Source of the DNA: a virus
Lineage: Duplodnaviria; Caudoviricetes
Strand: one strand, 5' to 3'
DNA length: 64,000 bases
IMG/VR virus record: IMGVR_UViG_3300017585_000267
Span: 41,239-105,238 of that record
The notes under the pieces are model-generated. The model was not told where the DNA came from and did no database searches. It saw only the letters and a program-made list of their open reading frames with translations. The position numbers and the translations under genes were made by a program. Below, piece after piece: positions 4,734-36,629 of the stretch (position 1 is its first letter; every line of letters begins with the position of its first letter).

Positions 4734-4946
4734 TCAGTCCTCCCGGGACCTGCGCCTCCCTATGCACCTGCTGGCCCACTTGAGCCATTCGCTGTCGACG
4801 AAGTAGGCCTGCTGCCCATACTCCGAGACACCCATGTCGTCATTTATGAGGTAGGAGTTGCTGTCAAAGCCGTCCAGCTCCATGTAGGACTGCGACTCAG
4901 GCCAGCACACCACCTGAAAAAGCCTAGGTCTCTCCATGTCAGCCAA
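4734..4946 (-). CDS. Hypothetical protein
   Basis: 70-aa ORF (VCWPESQSYME...YGQQAYFV) overlapping the upstream stop. Confidence 0.65.
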   Translation of the reverse strand: MADMERPRLFQVVCWPESQSYMELDGFDSNSYLINDDMGVSEYGQQAYFVDSEWLKWASRCIGRRRSRED

Positions 4947-5229
4947 TGTTAAGCAGCGAGGCGACCTTCCAAAGGACCCTCTTGAGCCTCATCTTCCACA
5001 TCCAGCACCAGCTGTACGAGGGGCTGCCGCCCATAGCCAGCAGGCAGGTGTTCCTGCGGTCCCTTGCGAGGTGTCCATACCAACGGTCCTCGCAGGCCTT
5101 GGGTGTCCTCCCGATCTCGTCGGACACCATGATGAAGCACCTTGACATGTTCTGTGGGAAGGCCGTGACCTGCCTTATGAGCCTGAGGTCCTCGGCCTGC
5201 GTCCACTTTCTCTTTGGTGAAGTTGCCAT
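4939..5229 (-). CDS. Myb/SANT-like HTH protein
   Basis: KWTQAEDLRL...IGRTPKACEDRW matches the Myb/RsfA-type pattern. Confidence 0.7.
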   Translation of the reverse strand: MATSPKRKWTQAEDLRLIRQVTAFPQNMSRCFIMVSDEIGRTPKACEDRWYGHLARDRRNTCLLAMGGSPSYSWCWMWKMRLKRVLWKVASLLNIG

Positions 5230-5335
5230 AGTTGTTGTTTTTAATGGTTGTTGAAAAATAAGTGACGCCATCCAGTGCCTGCCGAAAACAGCTCCAGTTG
5301 ACTATTGAATGCCTGCACGGGAGGGTGTCACCTTG

Positions 5336-5407
5336 TAGCTCCAGCAGGAATCGAACCTGCACCTGGGGTTTAGGAAACCCCCGTTCTGTCCGTTGAACTA
5401 TGGAGCC
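5336..5407 (-). tRNA. tRNA-Arg(CCT)
   Basis: Canonical cloverleaf: acceptor GGCTCCA/TGGAGCT, anticodon arm GGGGT-TTCCTAA-ACCCC, T-loop TTCGATT. Confidence 0.92.
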
Positions 5408-5442
5408 AAATGAGGGATGCCTTCAATGGGACAGCCCCTTTG

Positions 5443-5514
5443 CAATGGGCAGCGGAATCGAACCACTGTCTCAAGGTTGAAGACCTTGCGTACTGACCGC
5501 TATACCAGCCCACC
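5443..5514 (-). tRNA. Atypical tRNA, most like Glu(TTC) with C33
   Basis: Acceptor GGTGGGC/GCCCATT, D-stem GTAT/GTAC, anticodon arm CAAGG-TCTTCAA-CCTTG, 4-nt variable loop, G discriminator. Confidence 0.7.
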
Positions 5515-5853: not shown

Positions 5854-6177
5854 TTAATTTTCTCGTTCAGCCAATCGTTCGGCGACTTCTTCAAGCTGGT
5901 CTGCTATGAGGCCACCGAGGTTCTCCAAATCCATCAAGTGCTTCTTGACGTCATCCTGTAGCCCCCGAAGCTTCCCGATGTCATCCATTACGACGGGAAT
6001 GCCATTCGAGATGTCCGGAATGCTTCCGTCGGCCATTCCACGAAGCCTGAAGATGGTTCGGTCCAGCCTTTCACGGATGTTCCAGATGCAGTCAAGCAAG
6101 GAATCCTCATATACCTGAAGTTCCTTGAGGTCGCACCCAACAAGGTACAGCCTGTCCAAAGGCGAAAGGCCGCTCAT
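5854..6177 (-). CDS. Hypothetical coiled-coil protein
   Basis: ATGA overlap with the ligase stop. Confidence 0.6.
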   Translation of the reverse strand: MSGLSPLDRLYLVGCDLKELQVYEDSLLDCIWNIRERLDRTIFRLRGMADGSIPDISNGIPVVMDDIGKLRGLQDDVKKHLMDLENLGGLIADQLEEVAERLAEREN

Positions 6178-7637
6178 ATCGCACCCTCCCACATCTCGGT
6201 CCCTACAATCCCCCTGTCCATCTCCGAGGCCTCATGGGTCATGAACCTTACGCCCTTGTATTTGAAGGCTTCGGGAACCGGGTCATCCACAATCCTGAGG
6301 ACGACTCCCTCCCTGGGAACCTTGTAGTCGCACATGGGCTCATTTTCCTCAAGGTGGAACATTCCCTTGAGTTCCCCAAAGGCCCTTTCCGGGAAGGATT
6401 CGTCTTGATTGATGTCTGGAAACAGGGCTTCACAGGGGCCAGTCCACAGGATTTCAATGGGCATCAGGATTGGGTGGGTTCCCATGTTCCCAACCGTCCA
6501 CTCCCTCACCTCGTCCACGCCCCACTCCCTCTTGGTGCCGTCGGAACTTTCAGTGGTTATCCTATAAGGCATCAGCCTGCACTCGCCCCTCCTGCAACCG
6601 TAGTCATATCCCTGCTGTATGAAGGTGCCTGTGCCGGGGAGGTAGCCTACTATCTCGCCATAGAGGGACATCCCCTCCGGGATTATATCCTTCAGCTTCT
6701 CCGCCACATGGCTCCAAACGTCCACGTCATAGTAGCTTTTGGCGCCCTTGCAGACCCACCTGTTCTTTATGACGGTGCGCGAGGACCAGATGTACCTGTA
6801 ATCAACGATGAAGTCCTCCCTGCGCAATGAGGGGAACGCCCTTGAAAGGAAGTTGCCGATGCACCTCACCAAGGAGAACCCCTTGGGAATGCGGCACATC
6901 ACGTTGGCCAGGATGACACTTGTGCCATGGAGCTTCGTAGTGATCACCAAATTGTTGTCAGGCCTGAGCACCCTTCCGAAGTTCTTCCCGAGGGGCTGCG
7001 TGTCGTAGTGGAACATGAACTCCCCGGGGATTATGGTGTCGAACCTTTTCAGCCTGTTGTTCCTTTTATCCTTAGGAGCCTTGAAGGACTTCTCCACCTT
7101 ATAAGGCAGGTACGCCTGCACGAAGAGCCTCCCGTCCACGGTGTCGAAGTCCTCCCCTACGTGTGACGTAAAGTCATAGCCCTCGAGCTTGGGGCAATAG
7201 CGCACAAGCTCCCTGGTGGTGAAGAGGCAGCCGAAGGACTGTACCCCACGGAGCTTCACCGTCCTCACCCTGCAACTCTTGGTGAAGTAACCGGTCATTC
7301 CCCGAAGCCTCCCCTCAAGTTCCCTTCTATCCCCCTCTTCCTTGGATTTCCGCATCGCCTCCTCGACCTCAAGCCACTCGCGGTAGTTGGCGTTCCTCTC
7401 GGGCTTGTCGAAGAGGTTGTTCACCCTGAGGAATTCATGGGACAGCTGGCACTCGTTCGATGCGTAGAGCATCACCTCCCCCTCCTTCACGCGGTCCTTC
7501 CTGACCACGGTAGGCTGGCCAGCTATGTCCACCACCCCAAGGAAGTCGGATCCTTCGATTGGGGTCACCTTGGGTATCCTCACCAAGGTGCAGCAGTACT
7601 CATGCGAGCCTGCGCTTGAAAAGCTTATAAGTTCCAT
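6174..7637 (-). CDS. ATP-dependent RNA ligase (Rnl5/DRB0094-like)
   Basis: Motif I TKLHGTS, WSSRT, LYGEIVG, REGVVLR, FKYK; N-terminal PIEGSDFL module. Confidence 0.85.
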   Translation of the reverse strand: MELISFSSAGSHEYCCTLVRIPKVTPIEGSDFLGVVDIAGQPTVVRKDRVKEGEVMLYASNECQLSHEFLRVNNLFDKPERNANYREWLEVEEAMRKSKEEGDRRELEGRLRGMTGYFTKSCRVRTVKLRGVQSFGCLFTTRELVRYCPKLEGYDFTSHVGEDFDTVDGRLFVQAYLPYKVEKSFKAPKDKRNNRLKRFDTIIPGEFMFHYDTQPLGKNFGRVLRPDNNLVITTKLHGTSVILANVMCRIPKGFSLVRCIGNFLSRAFPSLRREDFIVDYRYIWSSRTVIKNRWVCKGAKSYYDVDVWSHVAEKLKDIIPEGMSLYGEIVGYLPGTGTFIQQGYDYGCRRGECRLMPYRITTESSDGTKREWGVDEVREWTVGNMGTHPILMPIEILWTGPCEALFPDINQDESFPERAFGELKGMFHLEENEPMCDYKVPREGVVLRIVDDPVPEAFKYKGVRFMTHEASEMDRGIVGTEMWEGAI

Positions 7638-7808
7638 ATGGCAACAGTTGTCGTTTATGCCGTGACTATAAAAAATAAAAAAATAAAAAACAAAAAACAA
7701 GGGGACACGGCAAGCCGCATCCCCCAGAAAGCGTCGACCAGTTTGTGGAAAACAAACAGGACGTTTAAAATTTTTAAAGTTAAACAGTATTCACCGGCCG
7801 ACGCCTTG

Positions 7809-7884: not shown

Positions 7885-8166
7885 CTATGCCTGCACTCGA
7901 ACGATGTCCTCCTCACCGGGCCTCTCAAGCGTTACGAGCTGAGCCTTCGAGAGGTCAACCTTGTCCCCCACCCCAAGCTCGGAATCCCTGGAGAGCGGGA
8001 TATAGGTCTGTCCGCCCGCCTTCATTATGAAGCATACGCTGTTCCCATACTGGGAAGCCACCACTTCCGCGCTCTTCACCGAAGAGATCTCCTCGGCGTC
8101 AAATGACCGCAATGACTTCACGCTCCAGTTTCCGGCGTAGCTCTTGAGGGTCGAAAAGATGTTCAT
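7885..8166 (-). CDS. 93-aa protein, paralog 1 of 3
   Basis: MNIFSTLKSYAGNW...VKSAEVVASQYG...MKAGGQTYIPLS; clearly aligns with 11954-12235 and 12509-12790. Confidence 0.85.
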   Translation of the reverse strand: MNIFSTLKSYAGNWSVKSLRSFDAEEISSVKSAEVVASQYGNSVCFIMKAGGQTYIPLSRDSELGVGDKVDLSKAQLVTLERPGEEDIVRVQA

Positions 8167-8638
8167 AAGTTTCATCGCCAATGCCCTTTGGACTTGTTTT
8201 GGTACCTGGCTCACCTGTTGTTGTTGTTAAATGTAGTACTGAGGAATACTTCCGGCTGGCGCCGTACCCCAAATATCGGGGAAGTGTAATGGGCAGGTGT
8301 CGCTCTATGCGGCTCCCATAAATCCACGTTTCACTGGAATACAGTTCCCCGGGCCTTCCACATGACGGCTGTATGGAACATAAAACGGCGGCCATGCCTC
8401 AAATGGAGTACTTCTTCGACAATGCCGACGTCCGTAAAGCCAATGACTGAATGGGCGCATTTTTCCTAAAAGGGAAGCACAAAAATGCCGGATGCGGGCC
8501 TGGGGTTCCCCATGAATGCCAGGGTACAGGCAGTAAAGTCGGGAAGAAATGGGTCGGGGGAAGGGATTATGGGGAAGAGCCGGGGATGAAGGGGATGGAA
8601 GACACTGTGAAACAATTTGCAAGTTTAAAAAAAAGTGT

Positions 8639-8646
8639 TATATTTG
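8639..8646 (+). promoter_or_regulatory. Bacteroidota sigma-A promoter -7 box
   Basis: TATATTTG with TTTG about 20 nt upstream; no credible ORF downstream. Confidence 0.75.
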
Positions 8647-8650
8647 CGGT

Positions 8651-9105
8651 TGCCTTAGACTACTAGTGAAAGTCTACACACCCCCCGAAGGTATGCGACA
8701 CGACAAGTAAGGGGAGAAGGTGGCTGGTAAGGGAGGCAGATGTGACTGATACAGAATACGTTACAGAAACAAGCTGCAAACATATCCCTGAGATATTGCT
8801 GCCAAGGGCAAAAAGGTTCTTTGATATAAGCATGGTCCGTTGCTGATGCACTCTAGAGACGCTGAGGGAAAAACGGGATCGAGATAAAGACCATTAGGTG
8901 TAATAACCCGCCCATGTGAAGTTCAAGGAATAAGCTGAAACCCAATGGGTTCAGAAAGGGAGACGGTTCGTCCCCCTGGGTATACAGGTATCCTCTCTTC
9001 AGAGAGGTTCTTAAAAAACAATCTGAATCAACAAGCAACAGTTTCAACATTCTCCCCCGGTGATAACACCTACCCAAGAAGAAGAGAGGATGAGCCGGGG
9101 GGCCT
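8651..9105 (+). ncRNA. Candidate large structured ncRNA A
   Basis: Follows a promoter, no plausible ORF; many helices (TGCCTT/GAGGCA, TAGACT/AGTCTA, ATGGTC/GACCAT, CCTCTC/GAGAGG, CCCCCGG/CCGGGGG). Confidence 0.5.
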
Positions 9106-9230
9106 ATTGTCATAACCCTGGTGAAACGTCCTTCAAGGTAGGTTTCAATCTCGAGACTAACTCACTGATACTCAATAAATTATAACTACTATTAGTGATA
9201 GTTGAAAGTTAATATGGTACTTTCGGCTTA

Positions 9231-9385
9231 ACGAATGTGCCATATTGCCATTTACTAATGTGGCATATTCCTTAAGGTGAATACCCCATGTAGGTTGTTT
9301 AAGCATTTTTCAATACCCCGACTCACGAATGTGCCATACTCGTCACGTCGACTTTGCCACTTAGGAGTTCACGAATATGGCACTT
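9231..9385. repeat. Four iteron-like direct repeats (ACGAATGTGCCATA consensus) next to an AT-rich tract
   Basis: Copies near 9231, 9253, 9325 and 9371. Confidence 0.6.
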
Positions 9386-9489: not shown

Positions 9490-10097
9490 CCTATTATATA
9501 TAGGAGTCCCCGGGCAGGGACATCATACGGCTGGGGCGGGAGCCCAGGGTGGTGGCGAATAATCCCCCCACAGGGTTTCGTCCTCCATGTCGCCCATACC
9601 TATTATATATATAGGCATGAAATTCCATCTACTCCTATTATATATATAGGAGTCCCGGTTACGGCCAAACCCAAGCTACACCTATTATATATATAGGAGT
9701 CACAGGCCGGCCACTCCTATTATATATAGGTACAGGTCCCAGGTTATACCTATAATATATATAGGTGCGGTGTCGTGGCTATACCTATAATATATATAGG
9801 AGTGTCGGCATCCATGTCCCGGTCCATATACTTATATTATATATATAGGAGTGGGACTGCCACTACACCTATTATATATGGGGCCACAGCCCTGCCCACT
9901 CTTCATGGTCATGGAGTCCAGGCCATACCTATTATATATAGGGATTCCTGGCCAGGCGATACACCTATTATATATAGGAGTGCCGGGCTTCCCATACCTA
10001 TAATATATATATAGGTATCCAGGCCATGGTCGAACCCGGACTACACCTATTATATATATAGGTGTGTCAGGTCGGCCATACCTATTATATATATAGG
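9490..10097. repeat. Array of 14 palindromic CCTAT(W)(AT)nAGG repeats with unique spacers, mostly 18 or 30 nt
   Basis: Repeat starts 9490, 9599, 9634, 9681, 9716, 9749, 9784, 9831, 9868, 9928, 9964, 9997, 10046, 10081. Confidence 0.95.
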
Positions 10098-10164
10098 CAT
10101 GGGACCATGCCGTCGCCTGTAGTGGAAAATCAAAAAAAGACTTGCAGGATTGAAGAATCCTTCC

Positions 10165-10172
10165 TATATTTG
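10165..10172 (+). promoter_or_regulatory. Bacteroidota sigma-A promoter -7 box
   Basis: TATATTTG with TTG at about 10142. Confidence 0.75.
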
Positions 10173-10177
10173 CGGCG

Positions 10178-10511
10178 ACTCTGGGAGGAGCTGCATCCTC
10201 AGCCGTGCCGAGCCACCCCCTTACGGAAAGGGTCTAACAGGGCTGGTACAGACATCGGGTCGAGAATGGGAGCCGTCCCGATACGGAAACATATCCCTGC
10301 CTCGTAGCCAACTGCCCCGATACCAGAGAAACCGCAGGTTGCCATGACCCCAGCTCGACACCATTGTGCAGCTTATGGAAAAATGGTGTCCACGAACAAA
10401 CGTGGAGGCAATGCCAGAACCCCAGGCGGGAAACGCAACCGAGCAATGGCGATGAGACTTTGACGAGGAGCCAGGGTCTCCAGGCAGGTTTCAGGCGATT
10501 TATTTTTTTTT
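10178..10511 (+). ncRNA. Candidate structured ncRNA B
   Basis: Promoter upstream, T-run at end; helices CTCTGG/CCAGAG, GAGGA/TCCTC, ATCGGG/CCCGAT, GACACCATT/AATGGTGTC, CCACG/CGTGG, GAGACTTTG/CAGGGTCTC. Confidence 0.55.
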
Positions 10512-11426
10512 CGACCTGAGCGTGCCAGGGGGCTCCTTTGCGAAAGAGAGTTCTATTCACTGACGTTCATAGAAACTCTTGCCTTTCTTGATTCAGGAGC
10601 CCTTCCCCCTCACTCCAGCTCCACACTCCTGGGTACGCAGTTCATAAGTACACAGTTCAGTCAATCAGCCAATCAGTTGGTTGGTTCAGTTGAAGGAACC
10701 CAGGCTGTGGGGAATCAGGGTTCACACAACGGCTCTCCTGGGCAGGTGTGGCTGTGTCGACTCCCCGGGGGGAGGACCCCCCGGCCCCCCCCGGAAGCGA
10801 GTGTGGGTGAATAGACATCTTGTCCGCTACTTGGGTACTGCTGAGGTACTGGTTCGCTTGGATGCACCACTTGAAGGGACCAAGGCTGTATGGTGGCGGG
10901 GTTCGCCCACTCCTTCCTCCCTGAGGACCCAAGGCTGAGGGCAGTCGCTTCCTGAGTGGACTCCTGGCTAAGGGTACTATGTTCACTTGGCCCTCTTGGG
11001 ATGGTCCAGTGGACACCAACCAAGTGGCCACCCCTTGGAAGGGATGTCGCCTTAAGGAACCTCCTTTAAAGGGACTTCCGGTCATAAGGAAGTGATCCCA
11101 TGAGGGCTTGGTTGGTTCTGTCCCTCCCCCGGTTAAGGCATATTCCCAGGTGCCACGCCCCTTGAGGGGACATCCTTAAGGAACTCCCTTGAATGAATCC
11201 TGAAGGGAGCCCTGTGAATGAAACCCCCAGGGAACCTCTTGAATGGACTTCACTTGAAGCAGGCCGCTTCATTCACTCCTTGAGGCCACTATGGGGACTG
11301 TCCTTTGGGAGCCTGCATTATTCCCCACCCCTGCCCCATGCCCCCTCCCTGTGAAGCAGTCTTTGCCGTCACGACCCTTGCAAGTCTGGCCGATGTTCAC
11401 TAACTTTGTACAAAACCTAATGGCAC

Positions 11427-11858
11427 ATGCGAACTAAGGAAAGATTCTGCTTCATGTACCCAGACGGGATGTCGAGGCTCCTCAGGGGACGCCTGCTCGA
11501 CCCGGCAGCCAAGGTCCTCCTGGGGCTCACGGGATACCTCGGGTACAACACCAACGTGGTGAAGCTCGACCCCATCAGGAGGACCTCGCTGGCTAACTCA
11601 TGCAGGATACCCAGGACCGCTCTTGACGACGTGCTGGCCGCCCTTGTGGGGGAGGGGGTGCTGGGGATGCTGGATGGGGACACCTACGTCATGGACAAGT
11701 CCCTCTTCTGGAAGGGGGACCTCAACTCAAGGGACGCTCTGAAGATGAAGGACCTCGGGAGGACCCTTGCAAGCTCACTCGAAGGAGCCTCCGTCCCGGT
11801 GGACCTTCCTGACACGGGAGGCTACTGGCAGCCGGATTCCTCGTTTGAACTCCGGTGA
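11427..11858 (+). CDS. RepL-like winged-HTH protein
   Basis: NTNVVKL..RRTSLA...ALDDVLAALVGEGVL...YVMDKSLFWKGD pattern; own promoter TAACTTTG at 11401. Confidence 0.7.
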   Translation: MRTKERFCFMYPDGMSRLLRGRLLDPAAKVLLGLTGYLGYNTNVVKLDPIRRTSLANSCRIPRTALDDVLAALVGEGVLGMLDGDTYVMDKSLFWKGDLNSRDALKMKDLGRTLASSLEGASVPVDLPDTGGYWQPDSSFELR

Positions 11859-11953
11859 AAAAAAATAAGGGAGCGACCCCATAAGGGGCCACTCCCACTG
11901 AAAGAAAAAAAACAAGGGACGCAGCCCGCATTGGACTGCATCCCCTGTACTTT

Positions 11954-12235
11954 TTAGGCCTCGACCCTCACGATGTCATCGCTGCCATCCCTGTGGAGGG
12001 TAATGAGCCTCGCCTTGGTGAGGTCCACGGAATCCCCTACGCCCAGGCTGCTCTGGTTGGAAAGCGGAATGTAGGTCTGCCCACCCGCCTTCATGAAGAA
12101 GCACACGGAGCTGCCGTACTGCGAGGCGACCACCTCCGCCGACTTGACGGCATTGATTTCCTCAGCCTCGAATGCACGGGATCCAGTCACGTTCCAGTTG
12201 CCAGCGTAGGTCCGCAAAGAAGAAAAGATGTTCAT
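11954..12235 (-). CDS. 93-aa protein, paralog 2 of 3
   Basis: Aligns with paralogs; followed by hairpin plus T-run terminators (11860-11945). Confidence 0.85.
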   Translation of the reverse strand: MNIFSSLRTYAGNWNVTGSRAFEAEEINAVKSAEVVASQYGSSVCFFMKAGGQTYIPLSNQSSLGVGDSVDLTKARLITLHRDGSDDIVRVEA

Positions 12236-12508: not shown

Positions 12509-12790
12509 TTATGCCTCGACCCTCAGAATGTCCGCCTCCCCGTCCTTGGAGAGCACGACCAGCTTGGCCTTTGTGAGGTCTATGGACTGACCCACGGCTG
12601 CGGAGGCATCCCTGCTCATCGGTATGAACTTGGAGCCTCCCGCCTTCATCATGAAGCAGCAGGACGTCCCGTATTGGGACGCCACCACCTCGGCGGACTT
12701 CACTGCGTCTATCTCCTCTGCTGAGAAGCCCCTCGTTTCCTTTACGTTCCAGGATGCGGCATAGGTCTTGAGTGAATTGAAGATGTTCAT
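12509..12790 (-). CDS. 93-aa protein, paralog 3 of 3
   Basis: Aligns with paralogs; terminator at about 12453-12490. Confidence 0.85.
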   Translation of the reverse strand: MNIFNSLKTYAASWNVKETRGFSAEEIDAVKSAEVVASQYGTSCCFMMKAGGSKFIPMSRDASAAVGQSIDLTKAKLVVLSKDGEADILRVEA

Positions 12791-16618: not shown

Positions 16619-17095
16619 ATGAAGAGGGTAAATAGGGATAGTAGGCTCAAGAGGAAGATGTCCTCGAAAAGGACTCCCTCGGGGAGGGAGTCCTCCCCTT
16701 CCTATATAAGGGAGCACAACGCCTTCATGAGGTCTAAGGCGAACGACTTTTTGCAGCGTATGGTATGCGAGCCGACCCAGGCCGAGGAGGTGTTCTCACG
16801 TCTCCTCAAGGCCTTGGGAGTCTACTTTATCCCCCAGTACCCCATATTCATAAGGAGGGACACTGGGCTGATCGAGAGGTTCTACATAGCCGACTTCTAC
16901 CTTCCCGGGAAGGACCTTGTGGTCGAGATTGACGGGGGCTACCACTCGAAGGACCTCCAGTGTAGGTACGACTCCTTCAGGACCGAGGACATACGGTCCC
17001 ATTATCCCAATATGAGGGTGCTCAGGATTGACAACGCCAAGGTGCTTGACCCTGGGGGCCTCTATGAGTTCGCGAGGGATCTTCTCTCTATATGA
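16619..17095 (+). CDS. DUF559/Vsr-like endonuclease
   Basis: PTQAE, FYIADFY, VVEIDGGYH, RYDSFRT, VLRI. Confidence 0.85.
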   Translation: MKRVNRDSRLKRKMSSKRTPSGRESSPSYIREHNAFMRSKANDFLQRMVCEPTQAEEVFSRLLKALGVYFIPQYPIFIRRDTGLIERFYIADFYLPGKDLVVEIDGGYHSKDLQCRYDSFRTEDIRSHYPNMRVLRIDNAKVLDPGGLYEFARDLLSI

Positions 17096-17336
17096 GGAAC
17101 GTGAGCAGCAGCTCCCTAAGGAACATCTCCTCCACCGCATCTACGAGCTTGCCCTTATGATCCCCTTTCCAGGGGCCGTCGGCCTGGCTGGCTATGACGA
17201 CACTGTCTCCCTCATGCAGTTCCATGAGGTATCTCCTGGAGTCCTTTCCCAGGTCGGACCCCTTCACTGTCCTCCTCAGCGACAGCCTCTTTCCCGTAAG
17301 CTCCCCGAGGGTCTTCACTATGTCTTCCATTTTCAT
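17088..17336 (-). CDS. Small hypothetical protein divergent from portal
   Basis: MKMEDIVKTLGELTG...; real C-terminal part of the 689-aa shadow ORF. Confidence 0.5.
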   Translation of the reverse strand: MKMEDIVKTLGELTGKRLSLRRTVKGSDLGKDSRRYLMELHEGDSVVIASQADGPWKGDHKGKLVDAVEEMFLRELLLTFLI

Positions 17337-17438
17337 GACGCTAATATAGGAAAAAATCGCAAAACTAAGGTTGTCTGTTAAGCAGTTGCAAAACTTTTCC
17401 GTCTTTCCTATCTTTGCATGAAATAAGCGTATAAGGAT

Positions 17439-19850
17439 ATGGGATATGCAAACAAGGGCTTTCCTGCACAGCAGCTTCCCTTCAGGGAGAAGACCAAGAA
17501 GTGGAGGAAGGCCAACGTGGACTTCGCGGACTCGAGGAGCCTGCTGCACTACAACCTCACGAGGAAGTCCGTGTTCAACATGAAGATAAACTACGACCTC
17601 CTCAACGGCAAGCTGCACATGGAGGACCTGAAGCTGATGCTGAACCCCTACGGCACCGCCGCTTCCTACATACCCGACAACATACAGCACTATCCCGTGA
17701 TGAACTCGAAGCTGCAAGTCCTCAGGGGCGAGGAGTCGAAGAGGGTGTTCGACTTCAGGGTGGTGGTGACCAACCCCAACGCCATCTCCGAGATTGAGGA
17801 GAACAAGAAGGAGGAGATGCTCGTGAGGCTCCGGCAGATGGTCGCGGACGACTCCGCTTCGGAGGATGAGTTCAACCGGAACCTCGAGAAGCTCGGGGAC
17901 TACTTCACGTACGAATGGCAGGACATGAGGGAGGTGCGGGCGAACCAGCTCCTCAACCACTACATCAGGGAGCTCGAGATCCCACAGCTGTTCAACGCCG
18001 GCTTCCTCGACGCCATGTGCGTCGGCGAGGAGGTCTACCAGTGCGACATAGTGGGGGGCGAGCCAGTGGTCGAGAGGCTCGACCCGATGAAGGTGAGGAT
18101 ACTGAGGTCGGGGTACTCGAACAGGATTGAGGACGCTGACATAATAATCATAGAGGACTACTGGTCGCCTGGACGGATAATAGACACATATTGGGACCAG
18201 CTCTCGAAGGAGGATCTCAGGAGCATCGAGGAGTCTCCCAATTTCCTTGGGGGTTCCTACACCGACGACATGGGGAGCGTCGACCCGAGGTATGGCCTCG
18301 TGCACGGTGCCGTCCTTGGGGACACGGACGCGGAGCTCGACCCCCTGAGCCTCTTTGACGATGACGTGGACTCCTCGCTTCTGCCATACGACCTTGAGGG
18401 GAACGTTCGCGTCCTGAAGGTCTACTGGAAGTCCCGCAGGAAGATAAAGAAGGTCAAGTCCTACGACCCGGTGTCGGGGGAGGAGCAGTTCAACTTCTAC
18501 CCCGAGACCTATGTGGCCGACGCAGACAAGGGCGAGGAGGAGGAGTCCTTCTGGATAAACGAGGCCTGGGAGGGCATCAAGATCGGCACCGACATCTACA
18601 TCAGCATGAGGCCGAGGCCCGTACAGTACAACAGGCTCTCGAACCCCTCGCGCTGCCACTTCGGGATAGTGGGCTCCATCTACAACATAAACGGCGACAA
18701 GCCCTTCTCCCTCGTGGACATGATGAAGCCCTACGCCTACCTGTACGACGTGATACACGACAGGCTCAACAAGGTCCTCGCGAAGAACAAGGGGAAGATC
18801 CTGAGGCTGGACTTCGCGAAGGTTCCCAAGGGATGGGACGTCGACAAGTGGCTGTACTTCGTTGAGTCCAGCGGCATAGCCGTGGAGAACTCCTTCAAGG
18901 AGGGCGAGTATGGTGCGGCCACGGGCAAGATAGCCGGGGCCATGAACACGGCCTCCTCTGGGGTGATAGACGCGAGCCTGGGGACCGAGATAGTGCAGTA
19001 CTGCAACCTCCTGGACTTCATAACCAACAAGATGGGCGACATGGCTGGCATCTCGAGGCAGAGGGAGGGGCAGATCTCGAACAGGGAGACGGTTGGCGGC
19101 GTCGAGAGGGCCACCTTGCAGAGCTCCCACATCACGGAATACCTGTTCTTCACCCATGAGTCCGTGAAGAAGAGGGTCCTCGAGTGCCTCCTCGAGACGG
19201 CCAAGATCGCCATGAAGGGCAAGGGCAAGCGCAAGTTCGAGTACATCACCACGGACGGGGCGGTGAAGCAGGCCGAGATTGAGGGGGACGAGTTCGCGGA
19301 GTGCGACTACGGCCTCGTGGTCGACAACGGCACCGCCACCCAGGAGCTCAACCAGAAGCTTGACGTCCTCACGCAGGCCGCCGTCCAGAACCAGTATGAC
19401 CTCTCGACCATCATCAAGCTGTACAACACCACCTCCGTCGCCGAGAGGGAGAGGATTCTCGAGAACGACGAGAAGAGGCGCAGGGAGGAGTCCCAGCAGC
19501 AGCAGCAGCAGCAGCTCCAGTTGCAGCAGCAGCAGCTACAGCAGCAGGCGCAGCTCGAGCAGGAGAGGCTTGACAGGGAGTACAAGATGCATCAGGAGAA
19601 GCTGGAGACCCAGGTGCTCGTGGCGAAGATCAACGCCCAGGCCGAGGCCGACAGGCTCGCGATGATGAACATGGACAACCAGGTGACGTCTGACCAGCAG
19701 TACCAGCTCGAGAAAGACAAGCTGGCGCAGGACGTCAAGGAGTTCGACGCCAAGCTCAGGCAGGACGAGGCGTCCCTGGAGCTCAAGAAGAGGCAGCATG
19801 AGGACGACATGAGGATCAAGGAGAGGCAGCTGCGGCAGCAGGGCAAGTAG
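17439..19850 (+). CDS. Portal protein (crAss-like)
   Basis: FPAQQLP...KINYDLLNG, IQHYPVMNSKLQVLRGEE, WINEAWEG, GISRQREGQI, QSSHITE; promoter TATCTTTG at 17409. Confidence 0.92.
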   Translation: MGYANKGFPAQQLPFREKTKKWRKANVDFADSRSLLHYNLTRKSVFNMKINYDLLNGKLHMEDLKLMLNPYGTAASYIPDNIQHYPVMNSKLQVLRGEESKRVFDFRVVVTNPNAISEIEENKKEEMLVRLRQMVADDSASEDEFNRNLEKLGDYFTYEWQDMREVRANQLLNHYIRELEIPQLFNAGFLDAMCVGEEVYQCDIVGGEPVVERLDPMKVRILRSGYSNRIEDADIIIIEDYWSPGRIIDTYWDQLSKEDLRSIEESPNFLGGSYTDDMGSVDPRYGLVHGAVLGDTDAELDPLSLFDDDVDSSLLPYDLEGNVRVLKVYWKSRRKIKKVKSYDPVSGEEQFNFYPETYVADADKGEEEESFWINEAWEGIKIGTDIYISMRPRPVQYNRLSNPSRCHFGIVGSIYNINGDKPFSLVDMMKPYAYLYDVIHDRLNKVLAKNKGKILRLDFAKVPKGWDVDKWLYFVESSGIAVENSFKEGEYGAATGKIAGAMNTASSGVIDASLGTEIVQYCNLLDFITNKMGDMAGISRQREGQISNRETVGGVERATLQSSHITEYLFFTHESVKKRVLECLLETAKIAMKGKGKRKFEYITTDGAVKQAEIEGDEFAECDYGLVVDNGTATQELNQKLDVLTQAAVQNQYDLSTIIKLYNTTSVAERERILENDEKRRREESQQQQQQQLQLQQQQLQQQAQLEQERLDREYKMHQEKLETQVLVAKINAQAEADRLAMMNMDNQVTSDQQYQLEKDKLAQDVKEFDAKLRQDEASLELKKRQHEDDMRIKERQLRQQGK

Positions 19851-19868
19851 CCTTTTGGGATTACGGTT

Positions 19869-19897
19869 AAGGGGGCTCATAGAGTCCCCTTTCTTTT
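19869..19897. terminator. Intrinsic terminator between convergent genes
   Basis: AAGGGGGCTC-ATA-GAGTCCCCTT followed by a T-rich tail. Confidence 0.7.
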
Positions 19898-19924
19898 GTC
19901 CCCACCGGTCCTTTCCAGCAGTCC

Positions 19925-20539
19925 CTAGTCGATTATCTTGACGTACCTGTTCATGGTGTCCCTTATGTAGGGGTTCCCTTCCTTCACGTCGACCCTTACG
20001 ACCGTGCGCTTCCTTTGGAACCACCTTGCCATGAAGCACTTCCTCGGCTTCCCGATTGGTTCCTTTGAGTTGGACACCAATATGTACTTCTGGCTGGTGA
20101 ACTCGGGCTCGGCGGCTATCACGTTAGGGTACTCAAGGTGCAGCCTCATCCTGTACCACTGGTCCCCATACAGTGTGTCAAGCTGGAAGTGCCTGTCCCT
20201 GAAGATGGTGTCCCTCACCGTGATGGTGTCCGTCCTCCTGGCTACCGACGCGAGATACTGTAGGGACTGGATCTCCTTGTCCTTTATCCCCAGCTCTTTC
20301 CGTATGGAATCCATCTTGTGCATGATGGAGTCCTTGAAGTACTCGAGCTGCCCCACCTTCAGGGACAGCGCCCTGTTCGAAAGCTCCATGCCGTTGTACT
20401 GGTCGTCCATGGCCTCGAGGTTCTCCACCGCCCTTCCGTACCTTTCCCCCAGCTTCTTTGAGTGGCCTATGGAAAGGCACAGTCCCATGGTGAGGAGGAC
20501 TATCGCCGCCACGGCTCCTATTATCAGCTTCTTCTTCAT
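19925..20539 (-). CDS. Spanin-like lysis protein
   Basis: N-terminal TM helix, coiled coil, DTITVRDTIF, WFQRKR tail; next to holin/lysin genes. Confidence 0.6.
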   Translation of the reverse strand: MKKKLIIGAVAAIVLLTMGLCLSIGHSKKLGERYGRAVENLEAMDDQYNGMELSNRALSLKVGQLEYFKDSIMHKMDSIRKELGIKDKEIQSLQYLASVARRTDTITVRDTIFRDRHFQLDTLYGDQWYRMRLHLEYPNVIAAEPEFTSQKYILVSNSKEPIGKPRKCFMARWFQRKRTVVRVDVKEGNPYIRDTMNRYVKIID

Positions 20540-20683
20540 CTTGTCATGTTTTTCGCAAAGGTAGCGATTCCTGCGGGTCGTTGTCCTTAGGGATGCCTTT
20601 AGGTTTGTGCAGCCCTCGAGTTATCGGCCAAACACTTGGGGAGAATCAGTTATCTTTGCATGGAAATATAAAGTCTGGCAAGA

Positions 20684-21049
20684 ATGCTCACTGAAGTCGC
20701 CATAGCCCTTATAGGCATACTATCAAGCGTGATATCCAGCTTCGTCACGTTCCATGTGACCAAGCGGAAGTACAACGCCGAAGTGGATTCCAACCTTATC
20801 CAGAACATGCAGGACTCGTTGCAGTTCTACGATGAACTGACCAAATCAAACACGCAGAAGCTCAGGGAGATCGAGGAGGAGAACCGACTGCTCAGGCAGC
20901 AGGTGAGCGAGTTGCAGACACAGGTGGTGAAGCTCATGGGCAATATATGCTACGACGCCACTTGCAGGGCCAGGAAACTTCAGGAAGAGGTCGACAAAAA
21001 GGACAAGGGACATGAACCTTCTGTTGAAGCGCAGGGCAAGAAAGCCTAA
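20684..21049 (+). CDS. Holin-like membrane/coiled-coil protein
   Basis: N-terminal TM helix, KRKYNAEVD, coiled coil; overlaps the lysin candidate. Confidence 0.55.
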   Translation: MLTEVAIALIGILSSVISSFVTFHVTKRKYNAEVDSNLIQNMQDSLQFYDELTKSNTQKLREIEEENRLLRQQVSELQTQVVKLMGNICYDATCRARKLQEEVDKKDKGHEPSVEAQGKKA

Positions 21050-21443
21050 GTACACCATAGGCAGCCTCTACATCGACGGCAGCTATTTCTGTGACACCCT
21101 TGAGGACGCGGACAGGGGGCTCAGGCACTCGATGTCCGATGCGGAGATAAAGTCCGTCAAGGTAGCCGGGGAGACCGCAATCCCGACGGGGAAGTACAAG
21201 GTGCTCTGGACCTACTCCCCAAGGTTCAAGAAGATGATGCCCCTCGTAAACGGGGTGCCTGGGTTCTCGGGAATAAGGATACACTCCGGGAATACCAATA
21301 GTGATACGGACGGGTGCATCCTGTTGGGGCAGAACAAGGTAGTGGGCAAGGTAGTGAACTCGGTGGCCACCATAGACAAGTTCTATCCCATCATAGAGAA
21401 GGCCTCGAAGAAGGGTGAGTCCATCTACCTGGAAATAAAGTGA
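21012..21443 (+). CDS. DUF5675 family protein (putative endolysin)
   Basis: YTIGSLYIDG..FCDTLED, TAIPTGKY, GIRIHSGN...TDGCILLG. Confidence 0.8.
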   Translation: MNLLLKRRARKPKYTIGSLYIDGSYFCDTLEDADRGLRHSMSDAEIKSVKVAGETAIPTGKYKVLWTYSPRFKKMMPLVNGVPGFSGIRIHSGNTNSDTDGCILLGQNKVVGKVVNSVATIDKFYPIIEKASKKGESIYLEIK

Positions 21444-21800
21444 TTACGCTTGTGGCATTGCCACGAGTTTTTCTCAATGTTTTGTGATGTGTCATAAGTA
21501 ATGTTCAATTAGGGTATAGGGAGGCGGCTGCGAAGTCCCCTCCCTATTTTTGTCTTTCGAAGCCCAAGGTTCTCCCTTTCCAACGACCTGACAAGAATTA
21601 TTTGTTTATTTAAGAATTTTATATAACTTTGTGGCGTGCTTGTGAAAGTACGATTACAGGATTAGCAGTACACCTTTTTAAGAAGGGAGGCTCGGGAAAA
21701 TTTGTCGAAGATCGGATTGTCTTTACGAGTACTTGAATGATTTTGATTAGTCAGCATACCTTGGCCTCCCTGTTTTTTATGGACTTTAAGGATTTGAGAT

Positions 21801-22013
21801 ATGTCAACAAGGGACGAGCAGAAGTGGCAGGCCGAGAGTGACGCGAGGGTCATGGCCACCTATCAGGAAATCCTGGGCGACAAGGCCAGGATGAACAGGG
21901 CCGTGAAGGAGGCCAAGCAGCAGGCGTCCGACCTCGCAAAGAGGGCGGTCGCCATGTCGAGGGCCGCCGGGGGTCCGTCAAAGACGTCCCGTACAACCTC
22001 GAAGAAGAAGTGA
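21801..22013 (+). CDS. Small basic protein
   Basis: KWQAESDARVMATYQEI. Confidence 0.7.
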   Translation: MSTRDEQKWQAESDARVMATYQEILGDKARMNRAVKEAKQQASDLAKRAVAMSRAAGGPSKTSRTTSKKK

Positions 22014-22014
22014 C

Positions 22015-22161
22015 ATGGAGAAGGCGAGGACACTTACGGCGCTCATCTCCACGACGCTCAGCGGCCTTGTGAGGCTCGCGAATGAGAAGGGGATACAGAA
22101 GGAGGACATCGTGACCGTGATAAGCGGCCAGGAGCAGTATACCTTGCTATACTATGTTTAA
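22015..22161 (+). CDS. Hypothetical 48-aa protein
   Basis: MEKARTLTAL...ANEKGIQKEDIV...LLYYV, fills the operon gap. Confidence 0.6.
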   Translation: MEKARTLTALISTTLSGLVRLANEKGIQKEDIVTVISGQEQYTLLYYV

Positions 22162-22176
22162 GGCACAGGGCTTCGC

Positions 22177-22389
22177 ATGGACGACAAGAAGACCATAGAC
22201 TACAACGAGGAGCCAGTCCTGTACTGCGCCAGGTGCTACTCACTCAACATCAGGGACGTGGATGGGGTTCCCGATTCAGACTACTGCAAGGATTGCAGCT
22301 GCACCGACATCAGGGAGACCTCCATATTCTCCTGGGAGAGGATGTACCAGATGAGGTACGGCCACAAGCTTGTGGAAAGAAGAAAATGA
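22177..22389 (+). CDS. Zinc-ribbon protein
   Basis: YNEEPVLYCARCYSL...YCKDC. Confidence 0.7.
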   Translation: MDDKKTIDYNEEPVLYCARCYSLNIRDVDGVPDSDYCKDCSCTDIRETSIFSWERMYQMRYGHKLVERRK

Positions 22390-22419
22390 CCAACATAACA
22401 ACAACTTAATTCAAAAGCA

Positions 22420-22779
22420 ATGGAAGAGATGAATAAAAACAACGTTCAGGCCGAGCCTGATGCAAGCGGCAAGAAGCCCACGAAGCTCTACACCGAGGCC
22501 GAGGTCAACCAGGCATGCCAGCGGCTCTATCAGAGGCTCCTGGCCCAGATGCAGCGCATGGACATGACGAACACCTTCAAGAGACTGGACTACCTGTTCC
22601 AGATACTCGACCACAAGGACATGTTCGAGCCCGAGTTCATCGCCGAGTGCGTGTCAGAGCTCACCTCCGCCATGAAGGCCGAGGACGAACCCGAGGCTCC
22701 CAAGGAAGGCGAGACGGAGGCTTCTGAGGCTGGAGAGGCGGACAATGGAGAGACCCCGAAGTCCGCTGGGGAGGAATAG
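22420..22779 (+). CDS. Hypothetical protein
   Basis: FKRLDYLF motif, acidic tail. Confidence 0.7.
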   Translation: MEEMNKNNVQAEPDASGKKPTKLYTEAEVNQACQRLYQRLLAQMQRMDMTNTFKRLDYLFQILDHKDMFEPEFIAECVSELTSAMKAEDEPEAPKEGETEASEAGEADNGETPKSAGEE

Positions 22780-22781
22780 CG

Positions 22782-23195
22782 ATGGGAAGTCCAGCTCAGG
22801 CTTCCCAAGGGAAGTTCCGTAAACCCAACAACATGGTTGAGGTTCCCACTAGGCTGGATACAGACTTCTTCAAGTGGTGGTGCATATTCCTCAGGCCCTT
22901 CATAAACCTCACCAACAGGGAGATTGACGTGGTGGCCTCCTTCCTCAAGCAACGGTACGAGCTCTCAAGAAGCATCTCGGATGAGGCCATCCTCGACTCC
23001 GTGGTGATGGGCGAGGACGCCAAGAAGAGGGTCATCGAGGATTGTGGCATAACGTTGCAGCACTTCTACGTGGTGATGAGCAACCTCAGGAAACGCAAGG
23101 TCATCGTCAATGACGTCCTCAACCCGAGGCTCATCCCAAACATCAGGAAGGACGACAACGGAAAGTTTCAATTGCTCATAGTGTTTGGGGAATGA
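22782..23195 (+). CDS. Winged-HTH-like protein
   Basis: LTNREIDV...HFYVVMSNLRKRKVI...LNPRLIP. Confidence 0.6.
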   Translation: MGSPAQASQGKFRKPNNMVEVPTRLDTDFFKWWCIFLRPFINLTNREIDVVASFLKQRYELSRSISDEAILDSVVMGEDAKKRVIEDCGITLQHFYVVMSNLRKRKVIVNDVLNPRLIPNIRKDDNGKFQLLIVFGE

Positions 23196-23494
23196 CTTAC
23201 GAGGAGATATTCGAGCAGGTCGCGGGGAAGCTCGGCTTGCCTGTCAAGGTTGTGGAGAGGGCATACAAGGCCTACTGGAGGGTTGTCAAGGATTATATAG
23301 CCTCCCAACCGCTCAAGGAGGACCTGACCGACGAGGAGTTCCTTGCACTGCGACCGCATGTCAACATACCCAAGTTGGGGAAGTTCTGTGTCACGCTTGA
23401 CAGGTACAGGAGAGTCAAGAAGTACCATGAGATAGTTGAAATGAAAATAAAGAAAAGACAGGAGAAACAAGATGCTTCACATCAGGAAGGTTAA
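23192..23494 (+). CDS. HU/IHF-like protein
   Basis: IFEQVAGKLGLP..VVE...NIPKLGKF. Confidence 0.6.
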   Translation: MTYEEIFEQVAGKLGLPVKVVERAYKAYWRVVKDYIASQPLKEDLTDEEFLALRPHVNIPKLGKFCVTLDRYRRVKKYHEIVEMKIKKRQEKQDASHQEG

Positions 23495-23885
23495 GCCCCT
23501 GTTCACGTCAGTCATAATCACTGGGGACAGGTTTGAGGACGACTGGATCGAGAACGGCCTTATAGTGGCCAAAAAGGGGGACATAAAGGTTTGGCAGAAG
23601 GTGCTGTTCGTGGGCGATTCCGTAAGGAACCTACAGCCGGGCGACATGGTCATGGTGAACTTCGAGAACTACGCCAAGAGGCGTTACGACAAGAACTCCA
23701 TACAGAACGACCTGGACAACAACCCCATAAAGAGCTATGACATCCATTGGCTCACCATCGACGACGACGAGGGGAATCCGATGGAGTGCATAAAGATAAA
23801 TGACAGGGACGTTGAGTATGCCTTTGAGGGGGAGGAGAGGCCCGAGCCTCAAATCGTGGCCCCGCAAAGCCAGCTCATCGTCTAG
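23472..23885 (+). CDS. GroES-like protein
   Basis: VKPLFTSVII...KVLFVGDSVRNLQPGDMVMV...INDRDV. Confidence 0.6.
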   Translation: MLHIRKVKPLFTSVIITGDRFEDDWIENGLIVAKKGDIKVWQKVLFVGDSVRNLQPGDMVMVNFENYAKRRYDKNSIQNDLDNNPIKSYDIHWLTIDDDEGNPMECIKINDRDVEYAFEGEERPEPQIVAPQSQLIV

Positions 23886-24015
23886 TCATTTATGCGACCC
23901 GATTTTATAGGCTAGGCACGTAGGGGGAGGGCGGCTGTGAAGCCCCTCTCCCCCATTTGTTAAGAAAATCGCTTAGGACGTTCGGACAAGGGGAAACATT
24001 TGGTAATTTTGCGCT

Positions 24016-24564
24016 ATGCGACTGATATCAGTTGAAAACTATGAGCTTAAGGTGGCCGACGAGGCCTTGCTGGTAAAGCCGATAAGGAGGCTGTTCAACA
24101 TGGACAGGACCCTGAAGAAGGAGAAATTCTACCAGCAGATGAGCGTGCTGTTCTTTTGCTATGACCCGAGGAGCAACTACTCCTACATAGTGGACGAGAA
24201 TGACAGGCTGAAGGAGGTCCTCGCCCAGGAGGGAATCCGGGACTTCCGCATGACGGCGGAGTTCAAGGCCGCCGTGGCGGCGTACAGGAAGCTGTGCGTC
24301 ACCTCGTCCTCGGTGCTCCTTGAATCCACCAAGGTCGCCATAGACAAGGTGAGCAGGTTCCTTCGGGAGGTCGACCTCAACGCCCTTGACGACCGTGGCA
24401 AGCCCATATATACAATCAACAACATAACCGCCGCGATAAAGCAGATACCCGAGCTCTCGCAGAAGCTGGCTGACGCCGAGAAGGCCCTCGCGAAGGAGAT
24501 GGAGGAAGGGGGGAAGGCCCGTGGGAGCCAGGAGCTGACAATCTTTGACAACAACATGGACTAA
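24016..24564 (+). CDS. Conserved crAss protein upstream of terL (possible TerS)
   Basis: DPRSNY, position, promoter TAATTTTG at 24004. Confidence 0.55.
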   Translation: MRLISVENYELKVADEALLVKPIRRLFNMDRTLKKEKFYQQMSVLFFCYDPRSNYSYIVDENDRLKEVLAQEGIRDFRMTAEFKAAVAAYRKLCVTSSSVLLESTKVAIDKVSRFLREVDLNALDDRGKPIYTINNITAAIKQIPELSQKLADAEKALAKEMEEGGKARGSQELTIFDNNMD

Positions 24565-24567
24565 GGT

Positions 24568-24753
24568 ATGGTACATTGGAAGATCACTGACAAGGACAAG
24601 GCCGACAAGCTTGGCGTAGGCATCATATGCGCACGAAATGGCGCGTCGTTCCTCAAGCTCAACCTCGACAAGGTTCCCAAGGGAATGACTGCCGACCAGT
24701 ACTATGACTGCATAATAAACGAGGGGGTAGCGGATTGCCATGACGTGGGATGA
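24568..24753 (+). CDS. Hypothetical protein
   Basis: 61-aa ORF in operon. Confidence 0.5.
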   Translation: MVHWKITDKDKADKLGVGIICARNGASFLKLNLDKVPKGMTADQYYDCIINEGVADCHDVG

Positions 24754-25762: not shown

Positions 25763-25783
25763 GGAAGCTTTTGGAAGAGTAGA

Positions 25784-29059: not shown

Positions 29060-29190
29060 AGGGGTAATAAGTGAAATACATCCTTTAGCTGCGCTTAGTA
29101 ACTATTTTAGGTCCCATAGAAACATCGGACTATTAGTTATTTTTGCATCAAATGAAGAACTTAAGAAGTAGGACTTAAAGAGAAGATAAC

Positions 29191-30375: not shown

Positions 30376-30424
30376 GGGCCTGACAATGATAGAAACCACT
30401 TAACTTTATTTAAATTTAAAAAGT

Positions 30425-31936: not shown

Positions 31937-32015
31937 TTTATAAGGATAGGGGGAGGAGTTTGACCTCCTCCCCTGATTCCTATTATTATCAAATACAATA
32001 CGGAGAAGTTTAAAA

Positions 32016-33026: not shown

Positions 33027-33040
33027 AACAGGATTGGAAT

Positions 33041-33862: not shown

Positions 33863-33886
33863 TGTGACATCTAACTTATTGAAGAT

Positions 33887-34681: not shown

Positions 34682-34693
34682 TCATCTTGGGAC

Positions 34694-35422: not shown

Positions 35423-35489
35423 TATATTGGAGGCCCCAAGTTGCCAACAACGGGGGGCTATTGTTAAACTAAATTCTTTATTTTTTAAA

Positions 35490-36464: not shown

Positions 36465-36629
36465 TCGTATCTGCATGAAATTCTTGGGGGATGGACCGTT
36501 CCGTCCCCCTTTTTGGTCTCTGTGGTATAAGGGGTTTCGTTAAGTCGGCGAAAATTTCCAGTAATGCCTTCAAAGAAATCCACATAAATTCGTATCTTTG
36601 GTGCAATAATAGGTTTGGTGGAACAGGGT

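Follow-up and report, generated by a model that had tools for sequence, protein, structure and literature searches.

A tandem array of oriented AT-core motifs in a crAss-like phage: possible binding sites for a factor of the host lineage

The DNA considered here is a stretch of 64,000 nucleotides (nt), referred to below as the window, which forms the right-hand 64 kb (positions 41,239 to 105,238) of the 105,238-bp IMG/VR virus record IMGVR_UViG_3300017585_000267 and carries a crAss-like gene set (portal, large terminase, major head protein and a giant open reading frame (ORF) of 2,583 amino acids (aa)). At window positions 9490 to 10097 lies an array of 14 short AT-core motifs, which an initial annotation, made from the sequence alone, had described as a palindromic repeat array lacking cas genes. 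We tentatively interpret it as a cluster of binding sites for a factor of the host lineage within a replicon-control region. The array would then be a cis-acting DNA element, an amplified cluster of 14 co-oriented motifs of about 17-21 bp, and each copy would be recognised by a DNA-binding factor with sequence specificity that belongs to the Bacteroidales family in which the motif also occurs and which we presume to be the host lineage. Stacked 44 nt upstream of the promoter of an RNA candidate (RNA B) and 1.3 kb from an initiator-like gene, the 14 sites might recruit or soak up this factor, and replication and transcription of the module would thereby be tied to the host. We infer three things here: protein binding to the motif, a host origin of the protein and such an effect of the binding.

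Anatomy and orientation of the array

A regular-expression scan for C[CT]TAT-W-(AT)n-A[TG]GG returned 14 copies between 9490 and 10097, starting at 9490, 9599, 9634, 9681, 9716, 9749, 9784, 9831, 9868, 9928, 9964, 9997, 10046 and 10081. The copies are 15, 17 or 19 nt long and separated by gaps of 94, 18, 30, 18, 18, 18, 30, 18, 45, 21, 18, 30 and 18 nt, which reproduces the motif count, the lengths and the gap series of the initial annotation exactly. With up to one mismatch, CCTATWATATATA matched 13 times, always on the plus strand and against 0.03 matches expected from 100 shuffles, and the rest of the 105,238-bp phage genome holds no copy of the motif. All 14 copies point in the same direction on the plus strand and follow the pattern YAYA-CCTAT-W-(AT)n-AGG, in which the core consists of A and T only and spans 11-15 bp. 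Every copy would be a perfect (TA)n palindrome were it not for one additional T (11 copies) or A (three copies), always near the left end; the array units are oriented sites and not true palindromes. The spacer cores are as GC-rich as had been stated, with 65% G+C in a phage genome of about 54%.

The flanks of the motif are asymmetric as well, with the 5' side kept as YAYA (A at position -3 in 14/14) and the 3' side variable. No covariation supports pairing between them: permuted 3' flanks paired as often as the observed ones (p = 0.24-0.5), and the previously noted extension of the stems to ACTCC...GGAGT therefore reflects composition and not selected pairing. A conserved 5' flank, a free 3' flank and the lack of covariation together fit recognition of a sequence better than recognition of a hairpin. 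Single units fold as DNA with energies of only -0.4 to -5.5 kcal/mol, many of them no better than shuffles, which lends little weight to the cruciform extrusion that had been suggested.

That misassembly of a low-complexity (TA)n region produced the array, a concern raised with the first description, is very improbable. Tracts of (TA)n are difficult to assemble, but the unique spacers give an unambiguous assembly path, and a second metagenome contig of differing length from the Joint Genome Institute (L309, 50,256 bp, sample 3300029976) shows 100% identity along 9,610 bp that include the array. Such identity speaks against an artefact, with the caveat that the two assemblies may not be independent.

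Growth by duplication and constraint on the motif cores

Most of the array consists of a four-motif unit with gaps of 18, 30 and 18 nt that is present three times on the plus strand (unit 1 at 9599..9730, unit 2 at 9749..9882 and unit 3 at 9964..10097), with extra motif copies at 9490 and 9928. Unit 2 is the most diverged and contains two degenerate motifs, at 9831 and 9868, while unit 3 (repeat family D3) is 81% identical to 9636-9728. When units 1 and 3 are aligned, spacers that occupy corresponding places turn out to be homologous (15/24 identical positions, p = 0.0008, and 9/12, p = 0.011), and this homology demonstrates tandem and segmental duplication of the four-motif unit as the way in which the array expanded. 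The spacers thus differ in sequence, as had been observed, but some of them are related to each other. The seemingly quantised gaps arise because the 18-30-18 unit is repeated three times, and the seven gaps of 18 nt and three of 30 nt amount to about four independent observations. The argument that fixed spacer length with free sequence speaks against tandem duplication thereby fails.

What has been conserved through these duplications is the motif itself. Units 1 and 3 agree at 48/49 motif positions and at 31/48 spacer positions (Fisher p = 1.4e-5), so the cores are constrained; the comparison shows that since duplication the motif cores were kept while the spacers drifted. Spacing is a different matter. 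Centre-to-centre distances of 34-35 or 47-48 bp correspond to 3.3 or 4.5 helical turns, which is not same-face phasing, and the motif arrays of Bacteroidales have periods ranging from 20 to 45 nt; neither the helical spacing in the phage nor the variable host periods suggests selection on spacing, contrary to what had been proposed.

The motif in Bacteroidales genomes

A two-motif scan of metagenome and genome collections found the motif (ATACCTATWATATATA) together with its flanks (ACACCTATTATATATAGG...) in G+C-rich Bacteroidales, where it forms arrays of 2-10 tandem copies in intergenic DNA; 10/18 genome matches belonged to this order. In five Bacteroidales genomes the 14-mer ACCTATWATATATA had 4-23 matches per genome and its reversed control had 0. 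A 16-mer was present in 11/151 genomes sampled across the order, with more than one copy in three, and in 40/101 genomes of the family of one carrier, with up to 14 copies. Judged by these matches, which show its distribution at the level of sequence, the motif is a dispersed, mostly intergenic and lineage-restricted repeat in one Bacteroidales family. Our literature search found no description of the motif, or of REP-like repeats (repetitive extragenic palindromic; REP) common to Bacteroidales and their phages.

Aligned host sites share (T)ATACCTATTATATATA, usually followed by (T)AGG or AGGT, and 43/77 of them lie without a long spanning open frame. The intergenic ones sit just past stop codons, just before starts or between the two, in either orientation. 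Orthologous positions recur across genomes, for example at MetRS, TrmB and def, and copy number can vary at one such site, from a single copy (locus L245) to three (L280). Since the motif is kept at the boundaries of housekeeping genes in genomes without this phage, its binder would belong to the host lineage.

The host arrays differ from one another in period and extent: a TAGGTTTG promoter followed by ten copies spaced at a period of 23 nt (L235, 3423-3643), four copies at 42 nt (L226, 3600-3760), five copies at 36-38 nt on the minus strand (L179, 3819-3940) and three copies at 20 nt (L280). Each has near-identical spacers of its own, which together with the varied periods identifies the host arrays as recent local duplications without common phasing, and they are transcribed in either orientation (L226 versus L235). 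Single motifs also occur as opposed pairs. At G008:C19:17208-18461 (L242, 1501-2754), two opposite motifs each follow the stop codon of consecutive genes of ~365 aa, and inverted pairs 4-6 kb apart in G008:C127, G252:C23 and G230:C2 exceed the expectation for ~14 random sites.

The motif also resembles the NrdR box, an identity that we rejected: the NrdR family TIGR00244 is absent from all five motif-bearing genomes, the phage has no ribonucleotide reductase gene, and only one of ~12 host arrays lies upstream of such a gene (for the B12-type enzyme), the others flanking unrelated genes.

The RepL-like gene and the plus-strand island

In the phage, the array occupies a region without a convincing ORF inside a block of minus-strand genes, and all recognisable signals in this region are directed along the plus strand. 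The island has the look of an accessory replicon or a control module. Its plus-strand gene P0002 encodes 143 aa at 11427-11858 behind a promoter (TTG at 11378-11380, TAACTTTG at 11401-11408; whole feature 11378..11858). We regard P0002 as a probable RepL-like and initiator-like protein on the basis of predicted structure and language-model similarity. The ESM Atlas gave a score of 0.96 with 194 shared features, RepL in 13/30 matches and template-modelling (TM) scores of 0.60-0.69 to RepL clusters, and the AlphaFold model is a winged helix (predicted local distance difference test score 85-90 for residues 30-100). P0002 itself matched nothing in Pfam or PHROGs, a word-indexed homologue search returned only the query, GenBank phages and PLSDB plasmids held no homologue, and a sequence profile search against the PDB gave only non-significant winged-helix matches. 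An exhaustive HMMER search recovered four small homologues sharing an FWKGD motif, 3/4 of which score RepL at E = 1e-3 to 6e-3, below the Pfam cut-off; the remote homologues also score HTH_36 and Phage_rep_O, again sub-threshold. In crAssphage, a predicted origin lies directly upstream of a repL gene, and a phage-plasmid lifestyle with RepL genes and adjoining origins has been proposed for the crAss prototype (PMC10983915).

Two further repeat classes lie on either side of the array. Upstream, four iterons of 14-16 nt of the ACGAATGTGCCATA type (9211..9382, plus strand; repeat families D4 and D5) are joined by an inverted partner, giving a 36-bp dyad at 9211-9246 (inverted repeat I21). Downstream, iterons of 25 nt (11048..11246, plus strand; family D1) comprise three exact tandem copies at 11172-11246 and one at 11048, and they lie about 180 nt upstream of the P0002 promoter. 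Between the array and P0002, a GC-rich tract at 10560-11350 contains several additional repeat families (a 52-nt pair, 10677/10858, and the 14-nt sequence TTGGTTGGTTCAGT three times) and overlapping palindromes; a 142-aa minus-strand ORF in it (10657-11085) has a low-complexity translation rich in P, G and S and looks spurious.

Two candidates for promoter-driven RNAs were read from the sequence on the plus strand. Non-coding RNA candidate A (8616..9013 with its promoter of Bacteroidota type, formed by TTTG at 8616-8619 and, after 19 nt, TATATTTG at 8639-8646) is ~360 nt long, is directed towards the array and ends, at 8992-9013, in a hairpin like that of a terminator. An 86-aa minus-strand ORF (8853-9113), probably spurious, overlaps this candidate. 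Homology links the 3' part of candidate A to an RNA candidate of the closest relative, G001 (score 45, against 27 +/- 4 and at most 38 for shuffles), while Rfam contained no family for it beyond a sub-threshold chance hit to mir-iab-4, and it had no match in the host genomes. RNA candidate B (10141..10520 with its promoter) has a promoter of that type too, with TTG at 10142-10144 and, after 20 nt, TATATTTG at 10165-10172, and the -33 element lies 44 nt past the last array motif. This promoter is like the RNA promoter of G001 (CTTGCAGG...TATATTTGC), though not above shuffled controls.

Three paralogous 93-aa genes on the minus strand bracket the island, as found by paralogue comparison: one at its left border (7885..8166), one at its right border (11954..12235) and a third at 12509..12790. 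Two terminator-like hairpins (11869..11948, minus strand) close both the island and the adjoining 93-aa gene. The family of 93-95 aa (MNIF...YAGKW...SAEVVAS...DI.RV.A) has no Pfam match and only a weak PHROG match; the closest relative carries three copies (L117 320-607 and 2466-2753; L110 284-571) and a possible fourth (L117 4118-4405) that aligns poorly, at 21% identity. Another small protein of the phage, 110 aa encoded at 4939-5271 on the minus strand and conserved in G001, contains a Myb-like domain (PF13921, E = 4e-8), which makes it a further candidate binder of the island repeats.

Related phages and other features of the genome

The phage stands apart in composition, with ~54% G+C against 29-48% in 80 relatives found via the portal protein, and none of these relatives has a comparable array within 10 kb of the portal anchor. 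The closest, G001, whose portal is 72% identical, possesses the 93-aa paralogues and the homologue of RNA candidate A (a candidate of ~500 nt on the minus strand of L117, about 950-1440) and is without the iterons, the array and the RepL-like gene, so that the island as such is absent. A related motif, CCTATTATATATAATG, does occur in G001 once, in inverted orientation, ~90 nt upstream of the promoter of its RNA, and in two more distant relatives (L093/L095) a single full motif immediately follows the -7 box of a gene's promoter; the motif is thus found near a promoter in three crAss-like phages, namely the window phage, G001 and L093/L095. Scans of IMG/VR with the exact motif and with two motifs yielded no second array, only single chance matches or unrelated AT-rich repeats.

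A 508-aa RNA ligase gene (6174-7700, minus strand) adjoins genes for tRNA-Arg(CCT) and tRNA-Glu(TTC) at 5335-5514 on the same strand. A homologue was not detectable in the three closest relative records, and the ligase used as an anchor for related loci led to nothing. The large terminase ORF (25784-29059, plus strand) is unusually long at 1,091 aa; different terminase PHROGs match residues 187-542 and 563-1085, and the N-terminal part has weaker DnaC-like and primase matches, so that the ORF could be a fusion or an insertion. Within the portal gene, a stretch of 55-60 nt (19494-19552, plus strand) is ~80% identical in 28/101 genomes of the Bacteroidales family and probably encodes a low-complexity charged segment; it is probably not a CRISPR spacer (CRISPR: short palindromic repeats, clustered and regularly interspaced).

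Alternative explanations for the array

Among the proposals of the initial annotation, the DNA-level options, binding sites or melt sites, remain the best reading and are backed by the RepL-like gene and the two iteron sets, whereas the phasing attached to them is not borne out. Melting alone, in which the AT cores would be DNA-unwinding modules of a RepL-dependent origin that act physically and need no dedicated binder, seems unlikely to account for the array, even though much of its setting fits. The 14 islands, each 11-15 bp of easily melted DNA in a genome of 54% G+C, would act whether or not RNA A provides priming; they are the sole clustered AT runs of at least 10 nt in the region, they are flanked by two iteron classes with the RepL-like gene 1.3 kb off, and a promoter and an RNA are directed into the region. 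Repeats of AT-rich 13-mers serve as the classical unwinding element in oriC and iteron plasmids, and transcript-primed origins are known from ColE1, T4 oriF and P1 oriL. Between 8 and 12 kb the local GC skew is close to zero; the skew tracks gene orientation, however, and its cumulative minimum lies 7 kb off, at the strand switch. Moreover, GC-rich spacers of 18-30 nt separate the islands, while known unwinding elements are contiguous, and melting leaves unexplained both the conserved CCTAT, AGG and 5' YAYA and the occurrence of the exact motif at dispersed host gene boundaries. An effect at the RNA level appears improbable: transcription of the array would come from read-through that starts at the RNA-A promoter or from a phage polymerase, and the 14 hairpins would mark sites of processing or protein binding and give short RNAs of unit length. 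The RNA-A promoter does point into the array, as the promoter of the host array L235 reads into ten motif copies, and the 631-nt RNA folds at z = -4.2, but this score is driven by pairing between repeats, whereas single hairpins are weak and their stem flanks lack compensatory covariation. In addition, a terminator-like hairpin separates RNA A from the array, no TAnnTTTG-type promoter was seen within it (by eye, no pattern scan), the host arrays are not transcribed in one consistent direction, and elsewhere in the phage the spacers have no matches above chance level.

The copy-number variation and near-identical spacers of the host arrays suggest another explanation, a selfish or neutral REP-like expansion in which a host repeat entered the phage and was amplified at (TA)n tracts, by slippage or unequal recombination, without a function for the phage. 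Such a history, and equally the amplification route that it invokes, has in our estimate a low probability. The motif does act as a dispersed intergenic repeat in the hosts, with recent tandem duplications there and duplication in the phage array as well, the (TA)n length differs between phage copies in steps of 2 nt, and no relative phage has such an array. Neutral decay in a size-constrained phage genome would, however, not leave near-identical cores among spacers that have diverged to ~65% identity or less; the 14/14 direct copies are unlike inverted pairs of REP sequences (REPINs), and the Y1 transposase genes present in 3/5 motif-bearing genomes are not flanked by the motif. Least credible of all is a CRISPR-like array without cas genes that holds acquired guide spacers, which the superficially regular near-palindromic repeats with differing spacers had suggested. 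The repeats measure 15-19 nt (about 21-25 with flanks) against ~23-47 nt in CRISPR, and the gaps 18-30 nt (cores 12-24) against spacers of ~26-72 nt; the spacers are diverged duplicates of each other, and the search for targets found no phage match beyond shuffles. Cas1 was not found in the whole 105-kb genome, in agreement with the earlier remark that cas genes are missing, and unlike CRISPR repeats the motif occurs singly at ~15-20 dispersed host sites. The idea of a precursor cut into guide-like RNAs thus fails on repeat and spacer size, on spacer origin and on cas content.

The interpretation as a cluster of host-lineage binding sites accommodates the conserved cores, the oriented flanks and the dispersed host copies, but several observations weigh against it. 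The binder of the motif is so far hypothetical, and a rigid dimer would cope badly with half-sites whose spacing varies (15, 17 or 19 nt). On the host side, ~40% of the exact matches may be coding sequence, e.g. T-Y-Y-I-Y codons; varied housekeeping genes flank the sites (71 Pfam families in 57 ORFs, none in more than two), no regulon is apparent among them, and the motif has no fixed position relative to host TAnnTTTG promoters. The host of the phage is presumptive as well, a 20-kb structural-gene stretch of the window (17000-36999) having only low-complexity matches in the 101 family genomes. Within the island, the RepL assignment derives from language-model and predicted-structure similarity and from sub-threshold Pfam scores only, and the array lies 850 nt from the 25-nt iterons and does not adjoin them. 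A more specific version of the binding-site interpretation, which we regard as doubtful, holds that the phage captured and amplified a host-lineage motif and that the array, placed beside a RepL-type replicon, hijacks or titrates a Bacteroidales factor. Candidates would be a nucleoid or topology factor, a polar barrier protein of replication or transcription, or a global regulator, and the hijacked or titrated factor would wire phage replication or persistence to a host system.

Significance and comparison with known systems

The locus would bear on the replication and persistence of crAss-like phages in gut Bacteroidales and offers a compact, testable candidate control region with an initiator-like gene, three repeat classes and two RNA candidates. 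If a host factor reads the motif, the array would tie phage replication or expression to host physiology, and 14 sites within 600 bp would be a ready bait for the factor behind an undescribed dispersed repeat family. If selfish expansion is the explanation instead, the array would be a rare case of REP-like spread into the genome of a virulent-type phage.

In the hosts, the motif works most like a low-copy repeat of the REP or BIME type (bacterial interspersed mosaic element; BIME), by analogy with the elements of Enterobacteria and Pseudomonas, while departing from REPINs in copy number, pair orientation and flanking transposase. Like these, it is a short near-palindromic intergenic motif at gene boundaries that is restricted to a lineage, persists at orthologous sites and sometimes forms small arrays with short linkers. 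It differs in having ~5-20 copies per genome (at most 23 of the 14-mer) and not hundreds, an AT-only core where REP is GC-rich, and direct arrays, with few inverted pairs 1-6 kb apart that flank genes. No REP-associated tyrosine transposase (RAYT) flanks it: PF01797 is present in 3/5 motif-bearing genomes, and the flanks examined held no motif. The largest array of the present motif, moreover, sits in a phage.

Two other comparisons illustrate what the phage array is not. Like CRISPR, including the mini-arrays without cas genes in phages, it alternates a conserved near-palindromic repeat with non-identical spacers, but its repeats and spacers are too short, its spacers are duplicated and targetless, and its repeat is also found singly in hosts. 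Partition centromeres (F sopC, N15 sopC-like, P1 parS) share with it about a dozen tandem units with a short dyad, F sopC consisting of 12 units of 43 bp, and the phage element may likewise persist as a plasmid. A centromere was nevertheless rejected, as the phage genome has no match to AAA_31 (ParA) or ParB_N, the spacers are unconserved and the motif is common to host chromosomes.

The phage setting resembles, in our analysis, the control regions of iteron plasmids, and any origin in the island is putative. As in theta replicons (P1 incC/incA, R6K, RK2, F, lambda ori), direct repeats of ~17-22 bp lie near a putative winged-helix initiator gene, and several repeat classes share one ORF-free region and have AT cores of 11-15 bp. 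In P1, incC and incA together contain 14 RepA iterons, and unwinding elements made of 13-mers are known from oriC and RK2. Unlike the phage motif, plasmid iterons are Rep-specific and not known to be dispersed in host chromosomes, the known 13-mers are contiguous, and a spacing of 34-35 or 47-48 bp, as in the phage, contrasts with ~22 bp in iterons. The remaining interest of the locus is the motif link between phage and host together with a compact candidate replicon-control island, and not an analogue of CRISPR without cas genes.

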